Origin: a virus
Taxonomy: Duplodnaviria; Caudoviricetes
DNA length: 30,053 nt
Reading direction: 5' to 3' (one strand)
IMG/VR virus record: IMGVR_UViG_3300017912_003051
Coordinates: 1-30,053 of that record
The notes under the pieces are model-generated. The model saw only the letters and a list, made by a program, of their open reading frames with translations. It was not told where the DNA came from and ran no database searches. Below, piece by piece: positions 7,930 to 29,363 of this stretch. The translations under genes were made by a program, and so were the position numbers. Positions within the stretch are counted from its first letter, which is position 1. Every line of letters starts with the position of its first letter.

Positions 7930-10900
7930 CTAAAAGTTTAATAATCCTAATATTTGATTTACTGGTGCGAATGCGCCTGTAAATTTATAAGTCTTTCCTT
8001 TGTATTTAAAAACAATTCCCTCGGTAGGTACTATTGATGATAATCCACCTATCTTTTCTAACTTACTTAATTGTAGTTTAAGTGTCTCTATCTTTTTTAT
8101 ATCACCACCAGCTTTTATTGTCTTGATTGCACTAATTACATCTTTTCTAATTTTTTGCACTGCTTTATCTGGCGATGCTACCAAATAGCCACTTATATTT
8201 TTTAGAATTTCAGAACCGACATCAAAGAACAATACTTCAAATGGTTTCATATTATCCTTAATATATTTTTTATGGTCTGTTTTATCGAATGATAAAGCCC
8301 AATCTAAAAACTTTTCATTATCAATCTCTTTTCTCATTTGTTGAACTGAATATGATTTATCTAAGAAAGCCCATCTTTTGGTTAGATTTACCAAAATTTT
8401 ATTTGGTATCTTATACCTATATTGTTTAGCCGCATTAAAGATAAACTCTATCCAAAACTTTTGATGATATAGAGATAGAGTATCATTGTCTTTTAAAGCG
8501 TATTGTCTTTTTAATTTATCTAATCTTGCCAAGTATGTTTTTTTCTTTGTACCGAAATTTTGTGTCTTTGGTACGTTTAAGAATAAGGGTTTACCTATTT
8601 TAAAATGCTTTTGTATATTCTGATTGACTTGTTTTATCATACCAGCCAACATTCTAGCAGAGTCTTTTGGTTGTCCAATAGCCTTACCACTTTCATCGTA
8701 TTCCAAAGTGCCATGAAAAATAATTTCAGATTTATCATAATCTATCACATTAGCCGATGCTGGATATATAACCTCTAAGTTCATCCACCTCTTACCATTA
8801 CCGAAAACTTTTTCTTTTTGTGCGTCAGTTAATTTTCCAACTGCTTTACTTAGGTCTTTCATAGCGAAAACAAAAGCATTTTTGATGTCCCCTCTACCTG
8901 CAAATTTAGAGGCTACACCAGCTGTGTCCATAGCAGTCGCACCATAATTTTTCAACTGACCTTTATTTCTAGCGGTGACCAATTTACCATTGACCCACGA
9001 AATCATAAGATTTTGTCCATCTAATTTTTCTGTAACGTTATCTTCCCTATTTAGTTCACCACCGAGTCCATTAATAATTATCTGCTTTAAATCTGAAAAC
9101 TTAAGATTTTTATCATCAAACGGATGATTCATGTGTCCATAAGCACCACCCTCTATTATAAGTTGAACTTCCTCTTTTAAATCTAATTTATCAAGTTCGG
9201 TATTAGCCACGTTGTCCTTTCCAACACCACCAACAACGGGAGTCTCTACTTCTACACCTGTATATGACTTTCCATCAGGCGTAATACCCATCCACTTGAT
9301 TAGTTCATACCCAAGATTTCTTAAAACCACATCATTTATGTAAGCCTTATATGAGTCTATCGGACTATCCACACCAAACCTTGAACCATAGTCACCAGTT
9401 TGTGAATGACCATATGCTACAGCAGGCACAGTGCTATAACTTAGGGTATAATCATAATCTGGATTGATAGCGTGTCTTGATAAAATATAATTTATCACTT
9501 CCCAACCTTGACCAGCGTACATATCATCCAACCATTGTTTTGAATATTTTTTGTAATCTGCGAATCCTCTGTGAAATGTTGGTGGCCCATCATCCGTAGG
9601 AGATAACGCGGTCATGCTTCCCTCTGATATAATATCACTTATGTCTTTACTGACTAAAAAACTATCAATAGACTCAAATAGTTTTTTGAATTTGTTAGTC
9701 ATCATATTATAGATACCATTATCAAAATACCCAAAAGCTTGTTTAAATAATTTTTTTCTATCCGCTTCGTAATTAGGTGAACCCAACAATTGTCTCATTA
9801 CCGTACCGCTGACCTCATTACCAGCTACTTTTACCGATTGATGTGGTGCTGTAAGAACGTATCCGTTTTCCTCATAACCCTTGAAATTATCCTTATTCTT
9901 TTTGTAATCTTGAAAATATTTCCCACCTTTTAATCTACCAGCATCCTTAGCCCCAAAAATGTAGACCACGGCGGTGGTGTCTTTATCATATTTTTTTAAA
10001 ACGTTTTTAGCCACATAGGGTGATTTTTCTTGAATGATACGATTTTTTGGAATACCCATCTTGACCATGTGTCTTACCTTTTCCTTAAAATCCATTGGGT
10101 GTCTTGGTGGTTGTTTAATATTTGATGTGGTTATATATGCATCATCTACCCTTGCCTTCAACCACTCATAAGTTTTTTTGTGATGTGGGCCAAATGGTTG
10201 GAATCTGCCACCATAGATACCAACTACTTTTTTTATCTGTTTTTGTTCTTTTATTTTTTCGTAACCGCTACCATAGGGGACTGAGCTATGTCCTTTTTTT
10301 TTCATCTTCTTTACGAGTTTTCTACTTGGTGATGGGATTGTTCCGTCAAAACTAAAGGTCTCTGTCTTACCTGTATCAGTTTTAAAAAAAGGCCCTCTTC
10401 TAAGCGTTCTAAACCTAACAGGTACCTCTTGTCCAAATAATTTTTTAGGTGCTAAAATTCTGAGTGTAACTAATTCTTTAGGATTATCTACTTTAATTAC
10501 TTCAAACTCTATCTCTTTATATCTTTTACCTTGATGTTTCAGATTCTTACCAGTAATAAATTTTTCTATCTTGTTACCTCTAACAGCAAATGCCTCTTTA
10601 ATACCTTGTTTTCTAAGTAGTTTTTCTTTTCTCATCCAACTTTTTGCATTTTTATTTTTTATCGGTTTTTTAATAAACCTCGCGATACCTTTTTTAACCA
10701 ACATCTCAAACTTTTTCTGTGAGGCTTTCTCATCTAAAAACTTTGAGTTATCAACTATAAGAAAGTTACCTTTAAAGAGTGATTGAAACTTACCAAGATT
10801 AGCTTGAACATCCTTCCAAGAATCACTAACAATGTTCTTTGGTAAGACCCTATCCCTTTCTTGATTACGCTTTTGTGCGACATCTAAAGACGTATTTACA

Positions 10901-11805
10901 AAAACCATAAATGTATCATAACCTAATTCCTCTAATTCTGCTTTTTGTGATGCTATCTTATTAAAGTTGTGACCAGTACCATCTACAATAACACCTAATC
11001 TACCTTTTACATATAATTTTAATCTTTGTTTGTTCAGCTCTTTCGCAAACTTTCTTAAACCACTTCCGTCAGGTCCTGTTAAATCATCAAACACCTCATC
11101 AGGCATCTTATCTAAATCCGTTCCGAATCCAAACTTCTTCAATAAAAACTTCAGTTCTTTATCCTGATTAATCATCTTCATGCCAGTCTGAGATACATTT
11201 ACTCTATCTGGTATTCCGAACAAACCTTTTGCTACATAGGTCTTTCCACTACCTGGCCCACCTGCTAAAAATACAGCCTTAAATATACCAGGGTCATTAA
11301 TACCCTCATTCACGTTTTCTTTTTTCAATACCCTAAATGTAGTAATCTTTTTACCATTAATAGTTGGCATTCCATGTTCATCTTTATCGATTGATTTTAC
11401 AACAACCTTTTTATTCTTAAATCTACCTGTAAGAATGGTGTCACCTATTTTGACTGGTATATTGATATCCTCATTTTTTTTCTTGGTCTTTGCCTTCATC
11501 TTATTTATGTATCTACGATATACAGCCGCTTGGGATTTCTTACCCATTTCACGAGCCCTTTGTTCCATAGCTACGGCGGCTTGTATCTTATGGGCATGGG
11601 AACGACCACTCGACTTAATTTTACGTACGGATGCCTCAGCGTCTTTTACCGTTGCAAATTTAAGACCCTTGATGGTTCCTTTTGGATTTTCGTCCGTGTA
11701 TAAATCGGAGTGAGATTTGGAACCTCGATGTTGTCCCTTTTTTCTTGGGACTCTTGGTGCCTCAGATAGTATTGATTCTACTAACCACTTTGATAGTTTA
11801 TTCAT
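7930..11805 (-). CDS. Multidomain protein: zeta-toxin-like P-loop kinase, HIGH-type nucleotidyltransferase and ATP-dependent ligase-like domain, plus small modules
   Basis: 1291 aa. Kinase: KAVFLAGGPGSGKT, IVDGTG, KRNQER. Nucleotidyltransferase: IYGGRFQPFGPHH...SGTVMR. Ligase motifs: TEKLDG, NLEVI, EGIVF, YKFTG. Confidence 0.85.
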   Translation of the reverse strand: MNKLSKWLVESILSEAPRVPRKKGQHRGSKSHSDLYTDENPKGTIKGLKFATVKDAEASVRKIKSSGRSHAHKIQAAVAMEQRAREMGKKSQAAVYRRYINKMKAKTKKKNEDINIPVKIGDTILTGRFKNKKVVVKSIDKDEHGMPTINGKKITTFRVLKKENVNEGINDPGIFKAVFLAGGPGSGKTYVAKGLFGIPDRVNVSQTGMKMINQDKELKFLLKKFGFGTDLDKMPDEVFDDLTGPDGSGLRKFAKELNKQRLKLYVKGRLGVIVDGTGHNFNKIASQKAELEELGYDTFMVFVNTSLDVAQKRNQERDRVLPKNIVSDSWKDVQANLGKFQSLFKGNFLIVDNSKFLDEKASQKKFEMLVKKGIARFIKKPIKNKNAKSWMRKEKLLRKQGIKEAFAVRGNKIEKFITGKNLKHQGKRYKEIEFEVIKVDNPKELVTLRILAPKKLFGQEVPVRFRTLRRGPFFKTDTGKTETFSFDGTIPSPSRKLVKKMKKKGHSSVPYGSGYEKIKEQKQIKKVVGIYGGRFQPFGPHHKKTYEWLKARVDDAYITTSNIKQPPRHPMDFKEKVRHMVKMGIPKNRIIQEKSPYVAKNVLKKYDKDTTAVVYIFGAKDAGRLKGGKYFQDYKKNKDNFKGYEENGYVLTAPHQSVKVAGNEVSGTVMRQLLGSPNYEADRKKLFKQAFGYFDNGIYNMMTNKFKKLFESIDSFLVSKDISDIISEGSMTALSPTDDGPPTFHRGFADYKKYSKQWLDDMYAGQGWEVINYILSRHAINPDYDYTLSYSTVPAVAYGHSQTGDYGSRFGVDSPIDSYKAYINDVVLRNLGYELIKWMGITPDGKSYTGVEVETPVVGGVGKDNVANTELDKLDLKEEVQLIIEGGAYGHMNHPFDDKNLKFSDLKQIIINGLGGELNREDNVTEKLDGQNLMISWVNGKLVTARNKGQLKNYGATAMDTAGVASKFAGRGDIKNAFVFAMKDLSKAVGKLTDAQKEKVFGNGKRWMNLEVIYPASANVIDYDKSEIIFHGTLEYDESGKAIGQPKDSARMLAGMIKQVNQNIQKHFKIGKPLFLNVPKTQNFGTKKKTYLARLDKLKRQYALKDNDTLSLYHQKFWIEFIFNAAKQYRYKIPNKILVNLTKRWAFLDKSYSVQQMRKEIDNEKFLDWALSFDKTDHKKYIKDNMKPFEVLFFDVGSEILKNISGYLVASPDKAVQKIRKDVISAIKTIKAGGDIKKIETLKLQLSKLEKIGGLSSIVPTEGIVFKYKGKTYKFTGAFAPVNQILGLLNF

Positions 11806-21419: not shown

Positions 21420-21572
21420 ATGGAAGACTTCGTAACAATAAAAATTAGAAAAGAGTTTAGAGACTTACTCAAGGAACATTGTAAAAAACGTGGCATAAAA
21501 ATGTATGCTTTACTCGAACAATTGATTAAAGAAAAGTGTACAAAGACAATATTATACTCTAACCAAAGTTAA
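21420..21572 (+). CDS. Small ribbon-helix-helix-like DNA-binding protein
   Basis: Below the ORF-track cutoff. 50 aa, MEDFVTIKIRKEFRDLLKEHCKKRGIKMYALLEQLIKEK..., with an alternating beta strand, helix, G-I-x-M turn and second helix. It fills the gap between the tail and recombination genes. Confidence 0.75.
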   Translation: MEDFVTIKIRKEFRDLLKEHCKKRGIKMYALLEQLIKEKCTKTILYSNQS

Positions 21573-24500
21573 TATTACTGAATCCGTTCTCTTTTTTAAC
21601 CTCTAACAACGTATCTACTGCATCTCTCATTGAATCTATATGCGACACAATCAATGTGAATTGAAATTGTGATTTCAGATATTGAAAAAGATTGTATACC
21701 GAATTAAGATTATCAGAATCCATCGTGCCCCAACCCTCATCAATAGCCAAGAAATTACTTCGTGGAAGATTAGATACATTTATCAAACCTACACGAATAG
21801 CTAGTGAAGATATGAATCTTTCCATACCACTTGATAGTTCTAATGGCCAAACATTATCATTATCATAAACAATATAATTATTTATGTTTTTTCCATCCAT
21901 TTCAAAAACCATCTGAAAGTCAACTAATTGAGATAAGATATTATTTACCTCTCCCTCGATAGTGGGTAGAGCTTTTGTAATCAGTTCATAGGGAACACCG
22001 TCACGTTTCACCGCATCAAGATAATACTCATAAGCCTCATATTTCTTTTCGAGGTCTGCTACTTTATCTATGTTATCCAATATATTTTTTCTCTTAGTAT
22101 CCAATACCTTAATTTCAGCGTAGACAGAGTTTATCTCACGATTTACCTTATCTAATTTATAATTTGTATCGCTTAACTCATTTTCAGTTGTCTTGATTTC
22201 TTTTTCTATATTAGAGTTATAAACTATATCTTTTTCTTGTTCGTAATATTTTTGTATCTTCTCCTCATTAAAATTTAATTGATTCACATAATTATTTTTC
22301 TTTTCATCTAATAGCTGTGTGGATTGCTTTGACTCATTAATCAAAGGTGTAATTTTTTCCAAAGCATTTTTAGTTTCTTGAAAATTTGTATGAGCGTTTT
22401 GAATTTTTTTCCAATCATTATTATACCACTTGTTATAACCATCAATCCTTATCAATAAATCCTTGACTTTTTCCTTATCATCATCTATTGATTTTTTTGT
22501 TTCAATAGCATCAAGTGTAAACGGATTTTTCATACAATAATCACAATCCTCATCATATTCTAAATCACCGAGTCTTTTTATTTTTTCAATTTTGACACTA
22601 ACTTTTTGTTTTAATTTTTCTAAATCAGTTTTCAGCTCAGAACCTTTTTTATCAATCTCTACAGCCTCGTTATATTCATTTATAATATTATTCTGTTCAT
22701 AATGATTTATTCTTGATTCTAACTCAGTTTTAGTTTGTATTCTTTCTTGATACTTTTCGTCTGCCTGAATATGTTGATTCTTTATAGAATCAATAGAATT
22801 ATTGAGATTATCCCTCTCATCTTCAAGCTCCTCAATATTTGATATTGATTCGTCTATTGATTTTAACTTTCTTGTTAACTCTCTAACAGTATCTTCTTGT
22901 AGCTTTTTATTTTTATCTATGACATCTTGTGCTTCTAAAAGTTTTTCATGTTTTTCCTCAAAATCCTCTTTATTATTTTTAATATCAGAAAGTTCCCTTT
23001 CCCAATCATTTCTTTTAAAATTCTTGAGTATGGCAGATACCTCTCTGATTTCCTCATTTGCAGATGTCCACAGTTTATCAAAAATTTCAAGACCCATAAA
23101 TTGAGCTAATAGAGTCTTTTTTTCTTTTTGTGTTTTTTCAATAAACACGGAGTTATTTGTTTGTGATGATAGTGCGGTTAGAATAAAATCATCATAGGTA
23201 CCTATAACTTTTCTTATATTTACTTGGGTAGTCCTACGTTGGTCACCATTCATGGATACCTTTTCACCTGTATCATCTATGGTATAAAAATCTATGTCTA
23301 CTTTTACATTACCTTTCCGATGTTTTTTTGCTGTTTTTTCGATAAAGTAGTCTTGACCATCAACTTCAAAATTAAGTTTACAATAAAAGTTTTTCTTCTT
23401 ATTGTTTAGTACGTTCTCTGCACGAAATGCTCTTGTACAAGTATCGAACAGACAAAATGATAATGCGTCTAATAAAGATGATTTACCTGAGGCGTTTGGC
23501 GCAAACATTCCAACTATACCATTCAACTTTCTAAAGTCAACCTTATTGGATTCACCATAGCTGAACATATTATCGAATTCAAATGTTTTTATTTTCCAAT
23601 TGACATTACGATATACATCTTCTTCAGGTATGGATTGATTGAGTGATTCATTTATATTTTTTATCTTGAGCATAACCTCATCAGTAACGTGATGATTACT
23701 ATCGAGATATTCACGTATAAGATTGAATTGCACATCTGAGTCACTTACATCACCGATTGTTATTGTTTTATTTCGTACCCTATCATTATTGTATATAGCG
23801 TCGGTTCTTGACACCATCATTTCTTTTATACCATAGGTCTTATGTAGAATAGCTAGACACTTTTTTAATTCTGTCGGTGTTGTGTTAGAAACACGAACTC
23901 TTAATCTTGCTTTTTTGGGCATCTTATCTATCTGTGGTAATTCGCCACCATCGATGTTAATAGTTACATAGCCATAATCGTTTGGTATTTCTATATATTC
24001 TGATTTACGTTTTGGCACATCCCATAGTAGATATCCATGTGAAAGTCCTTCTCCATGGTTTTGTTGAACAAGAGAACCACAATAAGCAATTGTTTCTTCT
24101 TTATCTAAAAATTGTTTTTTATGTATATCACCAAGCAATCCTAAATCATAACCTTTAAATTTATCTATATGAACATCAGATGGTAGATGAAAACCTAAAT
24201 CTGTTTCTGCTCTATCTACCGTTCCATGGAATAGGACGACCTTAGTATCACCCTCGACATCATCCGCTAATATGAAGTCCTCTTCTTTTGTCCAACAATC
24301 CCAAACAACAAAAGATACATCAGCACATTTATATACTCCACTATCTTTTAGATAATGTAGGTTTGGATGATTTAAATTATTTACGATGGGGGTAAGCACA
24401 TCTAAACGAGATAAGTTGTTTAGATTACAATCATGATTACCAGCTATAATAATCGTTGGACAAATATCTGATAAGTTCTTGAATAACCTTGAAAGTTGGT

Positions 24501-24708
24501 CAACTAATTCAGGCGACATATCTGTTTTCGAGTGAGCTATATCACCACCGATATAGACGACGGCATTATCTTTATTTTTTTCTATCTCTCGATAGGTTCT
24601 TTCAAAAACTTCTTCGTATTCTTTATGCCGTTTAAGATTACGAATTTGTATATCACTTATGTGGTGTATGTATTTTAATTTTTGAAATGGAACATTTATT
24701 TTTTGCAA
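21559..24708 (-). CDS. Fused Mre11/SbcD nuclease and Rad50/SbcC ATPase (T4 gp47-gp46-like)
   Basis: 1049 aa. Phosphoesterase motifs HISDIQ, GGDIAH, AGNHD, FHG and GDIH. Walker A APNASGKSS, coiled coil with CDYC zinc hook, signature SSGMER, Walker B AIDEG and IVSH. Confidence 0.93.
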   Translation of the reverse strand: MQKINVPFQKLKYIHHISDIQIRNLKRHKEYEEVFERTYREIEKNKDNAVVYIGGDIAHSKTDMSPELVDQLSRLFKNLSDICPTIIIAGNHDCNLNNLSRLDVLTPIVNNLNHPNLHYLKDSGVYKCADVSFVVWDCWTKEEDFILADDVEGDTKVVLFHGTVDRAETDLGFHLPSDVHIDKFKGYDLGLLGDIHKKQFLDKEETIAYCGSLVQQNHGEGLSHGYLLWDVPKRKSEYIEIPNDYGYVTINIDGGELPQIDKMPKKARLRVRVSNTTPTELKKCLAILHKTYGIKEMMVSRTDAIYNNDRVRNKTITIGDVSDSDVQFNLIREYLDSNHHVTDEVMLKIKNINESLNQSIPEEDVYRNVNWKIKTFEFDNMFSYGESNKVDFRKLNGIVGMFAPNASGKSSLLDALSFCLFDTCTRAFRAENVLNNKKKNFYCKLNFEVDGQDYFIEKTAKKHRKGNVKVDIDFYTIDDTGEKVSMNGDQRRTTQVNIRKVIGTYDDFILTALSSQTNNSVFIEKTQKEKKTLLAQFMGLEIFDKLWTSANEEIREVSAILKNFKRNDWERELSDIKNNKEDFEEKHEKLLEAQDVIDKNKKLQEDTVRELTRKLKSIDESISNIEELEDERDNLNNSIDSIKNQHIQADEKYQERIQTKTELESRINHYEQNNIINEYNEAVEIDKKGSELKTDLEKLKQKVSVKIEKIKRLGDLEYDEDCDYCMKNPFTLDAIETKKSIDDDKEKVKDLLIRIDGYNKWYNNDWKKIQNAHTNFQETKNALEKITPLINESKQSTQLLDEKKNNYVNQLNFNEEKIQKYYEQEKDIVYNSNIEKEIKTTENELSDTNYKLDKVNREINSVYAEIKVLDTKRKNILDNIDKVADLEKKYEAYEYYLDAVKRDGVPYELITKALPTIEGEVNNILSQLVDFQMVFEMDGKNINNYIVYDNDNVWPLELSSGMERFISSLAIRVGLINVSNLPRSNFLAIDEGWGTMDSDNLNSVYNLFQYLKSQFQFTLIVSHIDSMRDAVDTLLEVKKENGFSNINFG

Positions 24709-26864: not shown

Positions 26865-27737
26865 TTAAATTTTATTTTTCAGCTTTTGATATTCTATTTT
26901 ACCCCATCTCTCAGCTATTTCTTCGAACTTATTATCGTCGTGAAAATCACCACCCTTTTGCACAGCCATCTCACCAGCCATGGCATAAGCACGTTCATAT
27001 TTTTTCACACCCATCTTTTTTCTATCTAAGGCATGTTTAATTTCGTGCAGTACAGTAATTAAGAATTCTTTGACCGTTGGATAGGATGGTCTAAGATTGA
27101 TTGTATCTGTAACCCAATCATAGTCAGCCATATTCTTACCACGTGTAAATTTTACTTTTGATTTTAGACCATACTTTTTTACCAATTGTTTAGCTGTATC
27201 CATCAAATCCACTCTTTCTAATAATAAATAACCTGTCGTGTCTGTAATTGATTTTTTTAGTGACCTAAGTTTAGCTGGCCACTCTTCTGGCTTTATAAAA
27301 CCTGTGGCCCCTTTAACACCCTTAATGTTTGCTGTTTGAGAAGCTTCGTATAATTTGTCCATTATGGGTGTAATTCTTTCATCGAAAGGTTGTGGTAAAC
27401 TCATAATATTATAATAACCCCATGCCATATGTTCGTGTCCTATACGTGGCACAAATTTCTTATCACCTTGACAAATAAAGATGTGATAATCACCACCTTT
27501 ACTCTTTTTTGCCACGTGAGATAATTTTATTTCTTTATTTAGTATGATTTGAGTTTCTTCTGTGAATTCTCGATGTGCACCATCTTCTGGTGTCTCGTCT
27601 TTTTTACGATGTCCCTTTGGTATTTCCCATCTACCATTTGTATTTTGGACACATAATAATTCATCATCAACGATGTAGGCTATACCAGCTGCATGTTCAG
27701 AGTCCTTTTGTTCATTTATATGTTGTAGTTTAATCAT
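26865..27737 (-). CDS. Nudix hydrolase fused to a HExxH zinc-metallopeptidase-like domain
   Basis: Nudix box GHRKKDETPEDGAHREFTEET and C-terminal VLHEIKHALD...FEEIA. Start placed at ATG 27737 (MIKLQHINE), matching the leaders of the head-cluster genes. Confidence 0.85.
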   Translation of the reverse strand: MIKLQHINEQKDSEHAAGIAYIVDDELLCVQNTNGRWEIPKGHRKKDETPEDGAHREFTEETQIILNKEIKLSHVAKKSKGGDYHIFICQGDKKFVPRIGHEHMAWGYYNIMSLPQPFDERITPIMDKLYEASQTANIKGVKGATGFIKPEEWPAKLRSLKKSITDTTGYLLLERVDLMDTAKQLVKKYGLKSKVKFTRGKNMADYDWVTDTINLRPSYPTVKEFLITVLHEIKHALDRKKMGVKKYERAYAMAGEMAVQKGGDFHDDNKFEEIAERWGKIEYQKLKNKI

Positions 27738-27951
27738 TACAATGGTCACAAGAACACGTACGTAATTCCTCTGGCAGTTCTGTCCTTGTTATCTCCTCTC
27801 CGTTCTCATACTTAAATGTCATATTACTCGAATTAGCCCACTTTGGTTTTATAAGAATATCTTCAATTTTTAAATCTTCAATATGAGATTTACAAATATT
27901 GCATATTTTCGAAATTTGTTGACCACTACTGGTGAACTTGACTTGTATCAT
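27730..27951 (-). CDS. Small Cys-rich putative zinc-binding protein
   Basis: 73 aa from the ATG at 27951, right after the upstream stop. Contains CNIC and CSCDHC. Confidence 0.7.
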   Translation of the reverse strand: MIQVKFTSSGQQISKICNICKSHIEDLKIEDILIKPKWANSSNMTFKYENGEEITRTELPEELRTCSCDHCND

Positions 27952-27952
27952 T

Positions 27953-28381
27953 TTACCAAGTTCTACAAGCCCAATATCGTGCCTTGTGTTTTGGGCCAGG
28001 ATTATCACAATTGTGTCTAGCTCTAAAAGATTTTCTTCTTTCTGGATTTGATTTTTTGATACGCATTGTCTTTTCACCACCTTTACCCTTATGTCCAAAA
28101 TTAACCTTGACAACGTTACCTTTTGGATTCTTTACGTAGACCTTGAACTTCTTAACATCACCTTGCATGATTTTGTTAAGTTTTACTTTTCTGCCTTGAT
28201 ACTCAGCCTCTTCCATTGGTTGTTTTTCAAATTCAAAGGTATATCCACATCCCTCACCTAATTCTGTTTCCCAATAGATGTCAACGATTTCCTTGACACA
28301 ATTAGGAACCATTCTATTACCCTTTTTCTTCATACCAATTTGCTGATATCCTACCCAACAAGTTCCACGTTTTTCGTTCAT
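27953..28381 (-). CDS. Basic two-module phage protein (CW.GY...VPNCV module and a DUF6321-like domain)
   Basis: ATG at 28381 follows the upstream stop. Contains CWVGYQQIGMKKKGNRMVPNCVKE, then AEYQGRKV...KVNFG...RRKSFRARHNC...ARYWAC. The family name is from memory. Confidence 0.8.
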   Translation of the reverse strand: MNEKRGTCWVGYQQIGMKKKGNRMVPNCVKEIVDIYWETELGEGCGYTFEFEKQPMEEAEYQGRKVKLNKIMQGDVKKFKVYVKNPKGNVVKVNFGHKGKGGEKTMRIKKSNPERRKSFRARHNCDNPGPKHKARYWACRTW

Positions 28382-28383
28382 GT

Positions 28384-28836
28384 TTACCCTTTCTTCCAAC
28401 TACCGCCAGCAGCTTTATATTTTTTAGCTGCCCAAGCATTAGCATACGCTGATGGATAAACATCAAACTTCTTTTTAGCCTGAGACTTGTAATAAGACCA
28501 CTTACTTGGGTCTGTCGGCACATTCTTTTCAAGGAACATATCAAGCTTTTCCTCTAAGAACGCTTCTTTGACTATTTTTTTAAGTTGTTCGATTTTCACT
28601 TTTTTTCTCTTTTTTCTTGGATGAGAGTGACTCGATTCATCTGTAGGATTTAATCTGTCAACACTCACATTTTTATATAGTTTATTACCAAATTTTATAT
28701 CAACTATTTCAACCTTACCATCTTCATTAAGGGAATGCCAGACTACTTTACCGACACCCTCATTTTTTCGCTTAGGAGACCCCCAAGTCGCATGGTGGAA
28801 TCATTGATGTTGTATGGATTTATTATAAGTGTCCAT
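28384..28836 (-). CDS. Candidate selenoprotein, 150 aa, with an in-frame TGA at codon 12
   Basis: AAGGAGTTAAC-ATG at 28836. Reads MDTYNKSIQHQ-TGA(28803-28801)-FHHATWGSPKRKNEGVGKVVWHSLNEDGKVEIVDIKFGNKLYKN and continues in frame into the 28384..28668 ORF. A SECIS-like hairpin follows the TGA. Confidence 0.75.
28769..28790 (-). promoter_or_regulatory. Bacterial-type SECIS-like hairpin
   Basis: CG-A-CUUGGG [GGUCU] CCUAAG-CG: 8 pairs including one G-U, one bulged A, starting 10 nt after the UGA. The E. coli fdhF SECIS loop also contains GGUCU. Confidence 0.7.
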
Positions 28837-28837
28837 G

Positions 28838-29020
28838 TTAACTCCTTTTTTTCTTTTTTCTTCCTGCACAATGTGCTTTTTGACTGAATCCTTTAGGGTT
28901 ACTACAATCTATACTCTTCTTGTATTTTTGACTCCACTTTTTTTCCTTTATTACTTCGTATAAGTGAAGACAACCACAATCAAATTTTTCTACGAGATAT
29001 CTATGCACCTGTTTTGACAT
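28838..29020 (-). CDS. Small basic Cys-containing protein
   Basis: 60 aa. Leader ending VIKE, then KWSQKYKKSIDCSNPKGFSQKAHCAGRKK. Confidence 0.75.
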   Translation of the reverse strand: MSKQVHRYLVEKFDCGCLHLYEVIKEKKWSQKYKKSIDCSNPKGFSQKAHCAGRKKKKRS

Positions 29021-29363
29021 TTACGGACTTTTGTCCTTTCTTTCTTTCACCACCCTTTTTCGCATCACCAGCTTTTTTCTGTGCCGCTCTTTTTCTTTTG
29101 ACAAAGGATGCTCTACCCTTTGGGCCTAACTTTGCAGCTTTTGCTTTTGACAAACAGGCTGAATATGGTGCACCTTTTTCTGCATCACCACATTTACCTA
29201 ATCTCTTACCAGTAGATGAATACCTATCCCAACCACCACCACCTGCACCGCCAGCACCACCTTTACCAAACCACTTTCTTAAATCTTCATTGGTTGGTAT
29301 GCCACAAAAGATACAACAATTATCTTTTATTAAACGTATTGCTTCTTGAGTTTTTTGATTCAT
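29001..29363 (-). CDS. Small basic Gly/Lys-rich protein
   Basis: 120 aa. Leader with CCIFC ending PTNE, then DLRKWFG...GWDR...KCG...CLSKAKA...KRKRAAQ. Confidence 0.8.
   Translation of the reverse strand: MNQKTQEAIRLIKDNCCIFCGIPTNEDLRKWFGKGGAGGAGGGGWDRYSSTGKRLGKCGDAEKGAPYSACLSKAKAAKLGPKGRASFVKRKRAAQKKAGDAKKGGERKKGQKSVNVKTGA

Follow-up and report, generated by a model that had tools for sequence, protein, structure and literature searches.

Does a bacteriophage gene interrupted by TGA at its twelfth codon encode a selenoprotein? The question is raised by a stretch of 30,053 nucleotides (the window), a piece of a T4-like phage genome encoding a terminase, a T4-type portal, an S77 head protease, a GH108 endolysin, and a primase; sequences close to it are found mainly in marine metagenome runs, from 14 studies. 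On re-reading the sequence, all the coordinates proposed for the gene in the initial annotation proved right: the upstream ORF stops with TAA at 28840-28838, the ATG at 28836 follows one base on with AAGGAG (28847-28842) before it, the TGA occupies 28803-28801, and 138 sense codons separate this codon 12 from the TAA at 28386-28384 (Table 1). The non-coding gap expected if the TGA were a stop also exists, but it measures 132 nt instead of the suggested ∼135 nt, the next in-frame start under table 11 being a GTG at 28668. A loosely defined Shine-Dalgarno-like motif lies upstream of 77 of the 86 distinct relatives. A metatranscriptome contig spans 28442-28969 and, among the variants listed, none falls on 28801-28803, an observation to which we give no weight as evidence.

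From our comparative analysis, we consider it highly probable that the UGA of this phage gene is decoded as selenocysteine (Sec). Two comparative tests support the Sec reading of codon 12, namely the alignment column shared by TGA and Cys and the hairpin that is found only in TGA forms. In the proposed mechanism, the SelB/Sec-tRNA system of the host would read the UGA, guided by a bacterial-type SECIS hairpin located just 3' of it, and the product would be a 150-residue protein whose N-terminal domain may bind a metal via four His residues and Sec.

Table 1. Features of the candidate selenoprotein gene and its neighbors in the window.
Feature	Position	Strand	Basis or remark
Whole gene, 150 residues with UGA read as Sec	28384..28836	-	Sequence; full-length relatives with 77-89% identity and TGA at codon 12
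Shine-Dalgarno AAGGAG, overlapping the 3' end of the upstream gene	28842..28847	-	Sequence; SD-like motif in relatives
In-frame TGA, codon 12, predicted Sec; column of the Cys of the H-x-C motif in distant homologs	28801..28803	-	Comparisons
Putative bacterial-type SECIS hairpin, covering positions 14-35 counted from the U of UGA, with a conserved core at 28787-28771 and GGUCU as apical loop at 28781-28777	28769..28790	-	Folding and conservation
N-terminal domain, residues 1-74, predicted SH3/KOW-like beta-barrel; conserved H10, U12, H34, H70, H72; likely metal site	28615..28836	-	
Basic C-terminal module of exchangeable kind, in whose place relatives have other modules; matches DUF5872 weakly, under the cut-off	28387..28539	-	This module in 38/86 distinct genes
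Upstream basic protein; at least 8/86 relatives carry its module fused after the Sec domain	29001..29363	-	
Downstream basic protein; some relatives (L178, L181) have long Sec-domain fusions that terminate in its C-terminal module	27953..28381	-	

Codon 12 across relatives

Codon 12 is TGA in all 115 anchored loci of the close relatives (subfamily A), which are not independent but reduce to 79 distinct domain sequences. The same codon was found in the anchored loci of two distant subfamilies, B (5/5, outside which a sixth locus matched in its N-terminal part only) and C (10/10), so that the three subfamilies together give TGA in 130/130 anchored loci and no TGG allele. TGA is likewise present in 9/9 full-length viral loci and in 33/33 viral contigs, which were the same 33 whether the search pattern fixed TGA or left the codon free. 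It is also present in 80/80 metagenome loci, the best 80 of 169 matches, which were chosen on peptides excluding codon 12 and from which seven spurious regex matches in other frames were set aside. Between -33 and +51, two metagenome loci do not differ from the window. An assembly error, which the initial annotation had named as a refuting result, is ruled out by the TGA of these viral contigs and of the best 80 of 169 metagenome loci.

A recent nonsense mutation and a genome-wide reassignment of UGA (table 4 or 25), together with assembly error, are the explanations to which we give the least credence of all. Reassignment would account for the tryptophan that appears at this position in database translations; nevertheless, TGA works as an ordinary stop with short read-on in two relatives, ending 42/164 long ORFs of the complete relative G002 (median of 7 codons to the next stop) and 21/149 of G001 (median of 4). 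UGA is otherwise a stop in the window too, where TGA ends 3/28 ORFs, closing the terminase and two ATGA/GTGA overlaps, and where the 28 ORFs hold 88 TGG codons. No tRNA with a TCA anticodon was found in seven phage records. As for a nonsense mutation or an assembly error, a TGA common to 79 distinct sequences and to three subfamilies speaks against either. No further convincing Sec gene was found in the seven records, in which six other TGA-hairpin matches resemble non-coding frames by eye.

The conserved TGA could also be a true stop after a short leader peptide, followed by re-initiation, with the hairpin regulating the downstream gene. Gene callers do yield such shortened products (52/125 database proteins start late), and in subfamily C an ATG directly follows the UGA (TGA-ATG). 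However, a true stop would be expected to drift to TAA or TAG, as it does at the gene's own end, where the 86 distinct complete genes of subfamily A carry TAA in 60, TGA in 13, and TAG in 13. The terminal stop varies and codon 12 never does, which is indicative that codon 12 is not free to turn into another stop. In addition, subfamily A has no conserved start after its TGA while codons 13-19 are invariant, and termination at codon 12 would part H10 from H34, H70, and H72, which lie on one chain in the Cys forms. The amino acids of codons 1-11 are kept, with synonymous variation as in the rest of the domain. We therefore regard the leader-peptide explanation as very improbable and retain decoding of the UGA as Sec.

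The hairpin downstream of the UGA

Refolding reproduced the element that had been described in the window, an 8-bp bulged stem with GGUCU at 23-27: it is 22 nt long with 14 G+C, has 2+6 bp with A16 bulged, and folds at -8.5 kcal/mol, its spacing from the UGA being 19 nt and its apical loop 5 nt. In the available text of PMC13188914, bacterial SECIS elements are defined by an apical loop of 3-9 nt, a stem of 4-16 bp, G in the first two loop positions, a distance of 16-37 nt from the UGA, and an MFE <= -7.5 kcal/mol; the window agrees with the four criteria published there (5-nt loop GGUCU, 6+2 bp, 19 nt) and with the energy limit (-8.5 kcal/mol). By the same energy limit, 40/51 sequences of subfamily A, 3/4 of B, and 5/7 of C pass and 11/51, 1/4, and 2/7 miss it, in a 33-nt fold that differs from the bSECISearch procedure. 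Against dinucleotide shuffles the window hairpin was not significant (z = -0.72, -0.29, -0.57, +0.35). Among 500 synonymous recodings of the window peptide, 4.8% equalled its SECIS-like hairpin and 1.8% reached its MFE; in the subfamilies, the share of 500 draws that matched the observed hairpin had a median of 2% in A, 0% in B, and 0.2% in C. The hairpin by itself is unexceptional, and it is its conservation that carries the evidence.

A SECIS-like hairpin was found in 62/62 distinct TGA sequences (51/51 in A, 4/4 in B, and 7/7 in C) by a filter of our own, devised after the element was seen and passed by the G002 copy only once loosened. In all three TGA subfamilies a stem with a G-G/G-U loop stands 18-20 nt past the UGA, built from different sequences, and the loop of the 62 starts at position 22-24. 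Among the Cys genes with anchored DNA, 0/7 have a hairpin of negative energy. Codon usage is also constrained: Thr17 is ACT and Gly19 is GGG in 79/79 distinct subfamily-A sequences, both lying in the stem/loop, while the other fully conserved multi-codon residues of the subfamily (TGA apart) all vary in codon, and GGG is rare in the window (28/611 Gly codons). The stem is kept despite amino-acid changes (SP to DS, K to E).

Hairpin covariation restricted to TGA-bearing copies had been put forward as a check of the Sec reading. The restriction itself holds, and so does covariation in part: subfamily B keeps the same stem register and the same GUCU with other bases, pairs 17-33, 18-32, and 22-28 differing on both sides from A, and subfamily C, with loop AGUU and G23-U24, has three pairs changed on both sides, such two-sided changes also occurring among its own members. 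Within subfamily A, however, pair changes are one-sided only and of a tolerated kind (G-C/G-U, U-A/U-G), and pair 17-33 is broken in 6/44. The bulge A16 of the window is not kept in relatives.

The gene resembles the bacterial selenoprotein genes with an in-ORF SECIS, of which E. coli fdhF is the prototype, in its in-frame UGA, the hairpin within the coding sequence, the 5-nt loop starting with G, the 19-nt spacing, and the Cys homologs. It differs from them in being a phage gene for which no cellular homolog was found, in lacking a bulged U17, and in placing G-U at 24-25 in A and B (23-24 in C). The bulged U17 is given as a feature of the E. coli fdhF SECIS in the accessible part of PMC8659212, whereas position 17 is here a paired C in A and A in B and C. 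Consequently, the description 'fdhF-like' is apt for the loop position and the presence of a G-U but not for the bulge, and the G23/U24 register cited for fdhF in the initial annotation does not hold for the window: the strict combination of bulged U17, G23, and U24 is absent, and G23-U24 is exact only in C. Under a strict filter 8/1274 TGA triplets of the window pass, of which 28803 alone is in addition preceded by an ATG and continues into a long open frame. Rfam gave no SECIS match near the site, only two chance matches.

Cysteine homologs and tryptophan entries

Protein homologs span the whole product with up to 90% identity and carry W in column 12, or R once. A profile with X at column 12 recovered 89 representatives, and this column is Cys in 32, Trp in 38, and Arg in 1 of the 125 core-motif proteins fetched, with 52 that start too late (shortly before the HSL motif) and 2 unassigned. 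The Cys forms comprise 12 loci, of which 7 were anchored and 5 were missed by the anchoring pattern; all 7 anchored loci read TGT or TGC. Cys occupies the same column in the cultured cyanophages P-SSM7, S-ShM2, P-HM1, and P-HM2, and a profile comparison (hhalign) of the TGA and Cys groups gave 98.4% with E 8e-15 and aligned X on C. The expectation that homologs would have Cys or TGA at position 12 was thus borne out, by TGA in every anchored locus of the three subfamilies and by TGT/TGC in 7/7 Cys forms.

Homologs with Trp had conversely been proposed as a refuting result, and in protein databases they do exist (38 W and 1 R of 125); wherever the DNA of their subfamilies was read, however, the codon was TGA. 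The DNA of two distant groups with W or late-starting proteins has TGA again and never TGG, a read that covers neither the W-forms P0128, P0145, P0195, and P0208 nor the R-form P0003 (a close protein); a DNA search for P0195 and P0208 found none. Because the DNA of the same subfamilies has TGA and never TGG, the W in protein databases most likely originates from table-4 gene calling on short contigs. This exposes a systematic annotation error, in that among P0002-P0224 the databases hold the gene either shortened (52 entries) or with Trp (38 entries).

The tryptophan entries and the single R are also what would be cited for programmed readthrough without selenium, in which, with the help of the hairpin, UGA is read at low frequency by a near-cognate tRNA for Trp or Cys, limiting the amount of protein. 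A hint of type IX secretion in one relative, described below, could likewise mean a host without Sec. Yet no TGG occurs in 130 TGA-group loci, although this would be an easy fix if Trp served, the homologs carry Cys and not Trp, and all three hairpins, unrelated in sequence, agree with the SelB-binding consensus in their loop and spacing. We judge such readthrough to be improbable, though it is the least improbable of the alternatives to Sec insertion.

A tree of 36 domains (67 columns, with the Sec column masked) had an unresolved backbone, and therefore it does not show how often, or in which direction, Cys and Sec were exchanged. According to the accessible part of a 2006 survey (PMC1794560), the Sec trait was missing from Cyanobacteria, which fits the Cys of the cyanophage homologs. 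No cultured phage with the TGA form was found among 50,697 records.

The cyanophage T4-like proteins share the domain by sequence and predicted fold, with H-x-C, H-x-L-x-E-x-G, and H-x-H, and include PSSM7_192 of P-SSM7 (T4-GC715), PHM1_163 of P-HM1 (T4-GC534), and SShM2_183 of S-ShM2 (T4-GC1138). They differ from the window gene in having Cys (TGT/TGC) and no hairpin. The P-SSM7 homolog, like the window gene, lies a few genes upstream of the primase. These proteins belong to PHROG 764 and are labelled 'possible cytitidyltransferase' or hypothetical; the cytidyltransferase label is ill-suited to a 70-residue domain and seems to have been carried over from a neighboring or fused gene. The corresponding PHROG 764 match of our family was rejected as weak (best E 0.0015, 17/18 members), and it mirrors the cyanophage homologs.

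Protein, host and comparison with known systems

The predicted fold of residues 1-74 is mostly beta (mean pLDDT 84.1, pTM 0.65). H10, Sec/Cys, H34, H70, and H72 are conserved across groups, H15 in most, and H-x-H is present in 43/49. A His/Cys pattern of such kind suggests a metal site, and a site on four His and Cys/Sec in the N-terminal domain appears reasonably probable from this conservation. A fold search of the PDB returned nothing at E<=1e-3; its best match (NusG KOW, Z 5.1, rmsd 2.3, 50 aligned) is not above background, and the SH3/KOW arrangement is thus generic only. A structure search gave 7 matches at E<=1e-3, the significant ones viral and mostly the cyanophage homologs, and the look-alikes of one Cys homolog in the Atlas were 100% viral, in unnamed clusters. 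In Pfam and NCBIfam none of 29 members passes a cut-off or points consistently to one family, and the sequence search of the PDB gave no family. No cellular homolog was found, the sole GTDB match being a phage-like contig. The superoxide reductase centre II, Fe(His)4(Cys) according to the accessible part of bioRxiv 10.1101/2022.12.19.521142, offers an analogy in having the same candidate ligand count of four His and one Cys/Sec; it differs in showing no sequence match and in being absent from the listed fold matches, the domain being predicted as SH3/KOW-like.

The domain is fused to interchangeable basic modules: of 86 genes, 38 have the module found in the window gene, 22 a short tail, 8 that of the upstream neighbor, and 18 others. 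The small basic Cys/His modules encoded at 27953-29363 of the window are separate genes there and occur in fusions of 200-470 residues in L097, L102, L162, L178, and L181, while the subfamily-B genes L220, L221, and L224 end in a Gly-Ser-Cys-Ser tail that is absent from L222 and L223. The window gene has in common with T4 internal proteins and gp21-processed head cargo that small basic modules are shuffled among neighbors and that the phage encodes an S77 protease and a T4-type portal. Conceivably, the domain is packaged in the head within basic proteins of shuffled make-up that serve as cargo, a proposal that we hold tentatively, at slightly less than even chances. In the available part of a cyanophage virion table (PMC3037559), the clusters holding the domain are not listed, while the neighboring GC190, 119, 425, and 426 were detected. 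The weakest step of the mechanism concerns the job of the protein, which would most likely be to provide a metal centre, redox-active or resistant to oxidation, that travels with the phage DNA or protects it.

All these readings may be joined into one: a phage-only SH3-like domain with a redox metal on four His and a selenolate (a superoxide-reductase-like centre in a new fold), loaded into the head with basic cargo and toggling between Sec and Cys by the Sec ability of the host, in several lineages of abundant marine T4-like phages. As a whole this combination is rather unlikely. If the toggling were true, the codon would predict the host type and tie oceanic selenium to viral particles.

Reliance on sel genes of the host is very likely, its support being their absence from related phages. 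No selA, selB, or selD was found in G001, G002, G003, G006, and G007, searched among records of which only two are >=95% complete, both from distant subfamilies, and no tRNA-Sec in nine related records, the candidates in related phages being Leu and Asn tRNAs. The best host hint comes from G007, whose domain is 91% identical to that of the window: its locus L291 (G007:C1:49840-57881) is a block of envelope-type genes, one of which encodes a 932-aa protein whose C-terminal domain, of the type IX secretion kind, scores above cut-off, and this cargo gene points to a host of the Bacteroidota/FCB group. The accessible part of the 2006 survey gives Bacteroidetes as lacking the Sec trait (PMC1794560), and so the hint was counted against the Sec reading, for which the nature of the host is the main risk. 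In four relatives, SD-like sites precede 17-22 of the 32-58 long ORFs. Such sites presumably argue against Flavobacteria as host, and Marinisomatota would, we assume, fit. The TGA gene also occurs on L242 (NHHP01000001.1), the single GTDB match, a 72-kb contig in the bin 'Candidatus Pelagibacter sp. TMED166', which has the phage gene order of the window (RusA-like, primase, SbcC-like) and is probably a phage contig mis-binned into a bacterial genome; no selB over cut-off was found in that bin.

The claim that few if any phage selenoproteins have been characterized agrees with our survey, as no described bacteriophage selenoprotein was found in the literature searched, a body from which subscription journals mostly fall out. 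Huge phages with Sec tRNA genes have been reported, with phage selenoproteins merely suggested in the accessible text (PMC10747093). Neither 'phage' nor 'virus' occurs in the accessible text of two 2026 selenoprotein compilations (PMC13188914, PMC13326102), and the H-x-U motif and the family are absent, by name and by motif, from the 119-family table of the former as far as it is available. In the accessible GOS supplements of a 2008 marine survey (PMC2398784), five motif strings of the family are absent, and GOS_A, GOS_B, and GOS_C were found to be other proteins. The only proven viral selenoproteins, according to the available part of a 2019 review (PMC6769590), are those of poxviruses (molluscum contagiosum MC066L GPX1 and fowlpox GPX4), which are alike in being viral genes relying on the host Sec machinery but are captured host peroxidases with a eukaryotic SECIS, in contrast to the bacterial-type SECIS and phage-only fold of the present gene. 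The mechanism proposed here is the known bacterial one, and it is the phage as bearer of the signal, together with the protein family, that is new within the literature searched.

The case is unusually well supported, with three TGA subfamilies, differing hairpin sequences, and cultured Cys controls. If true, it would mean that Sec codons and SECIS elements of their own arise in phages and are maintained there in a phage-specific protein, beyond captured host genes. It also makes a host-range prediction, namely that the TGA forms need Sec-decoding hosts, and the His/Sec site of the family is small, new, and readily testable.

Other genes of the window, all on the minus strand, have unusual domain combinations. 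A 1291-aa protein (7930-11805), located just before the terminase, has AAA/kinase-like and cytidylyltransferase-like domains, and its N-terminus weakly matches PHROG 727, as does the basic module gene at 27953-28381. A metallophosphoesterase and an SbcC-like ATPase lie on one chain (SbcD-SbcC) at 21559-24708, an arrangement present in L242 too, and a Nudix hydrolase at 26865-27749 has a C-terminal HEIKH zincin-like segment fused to it (weak Pfam match).
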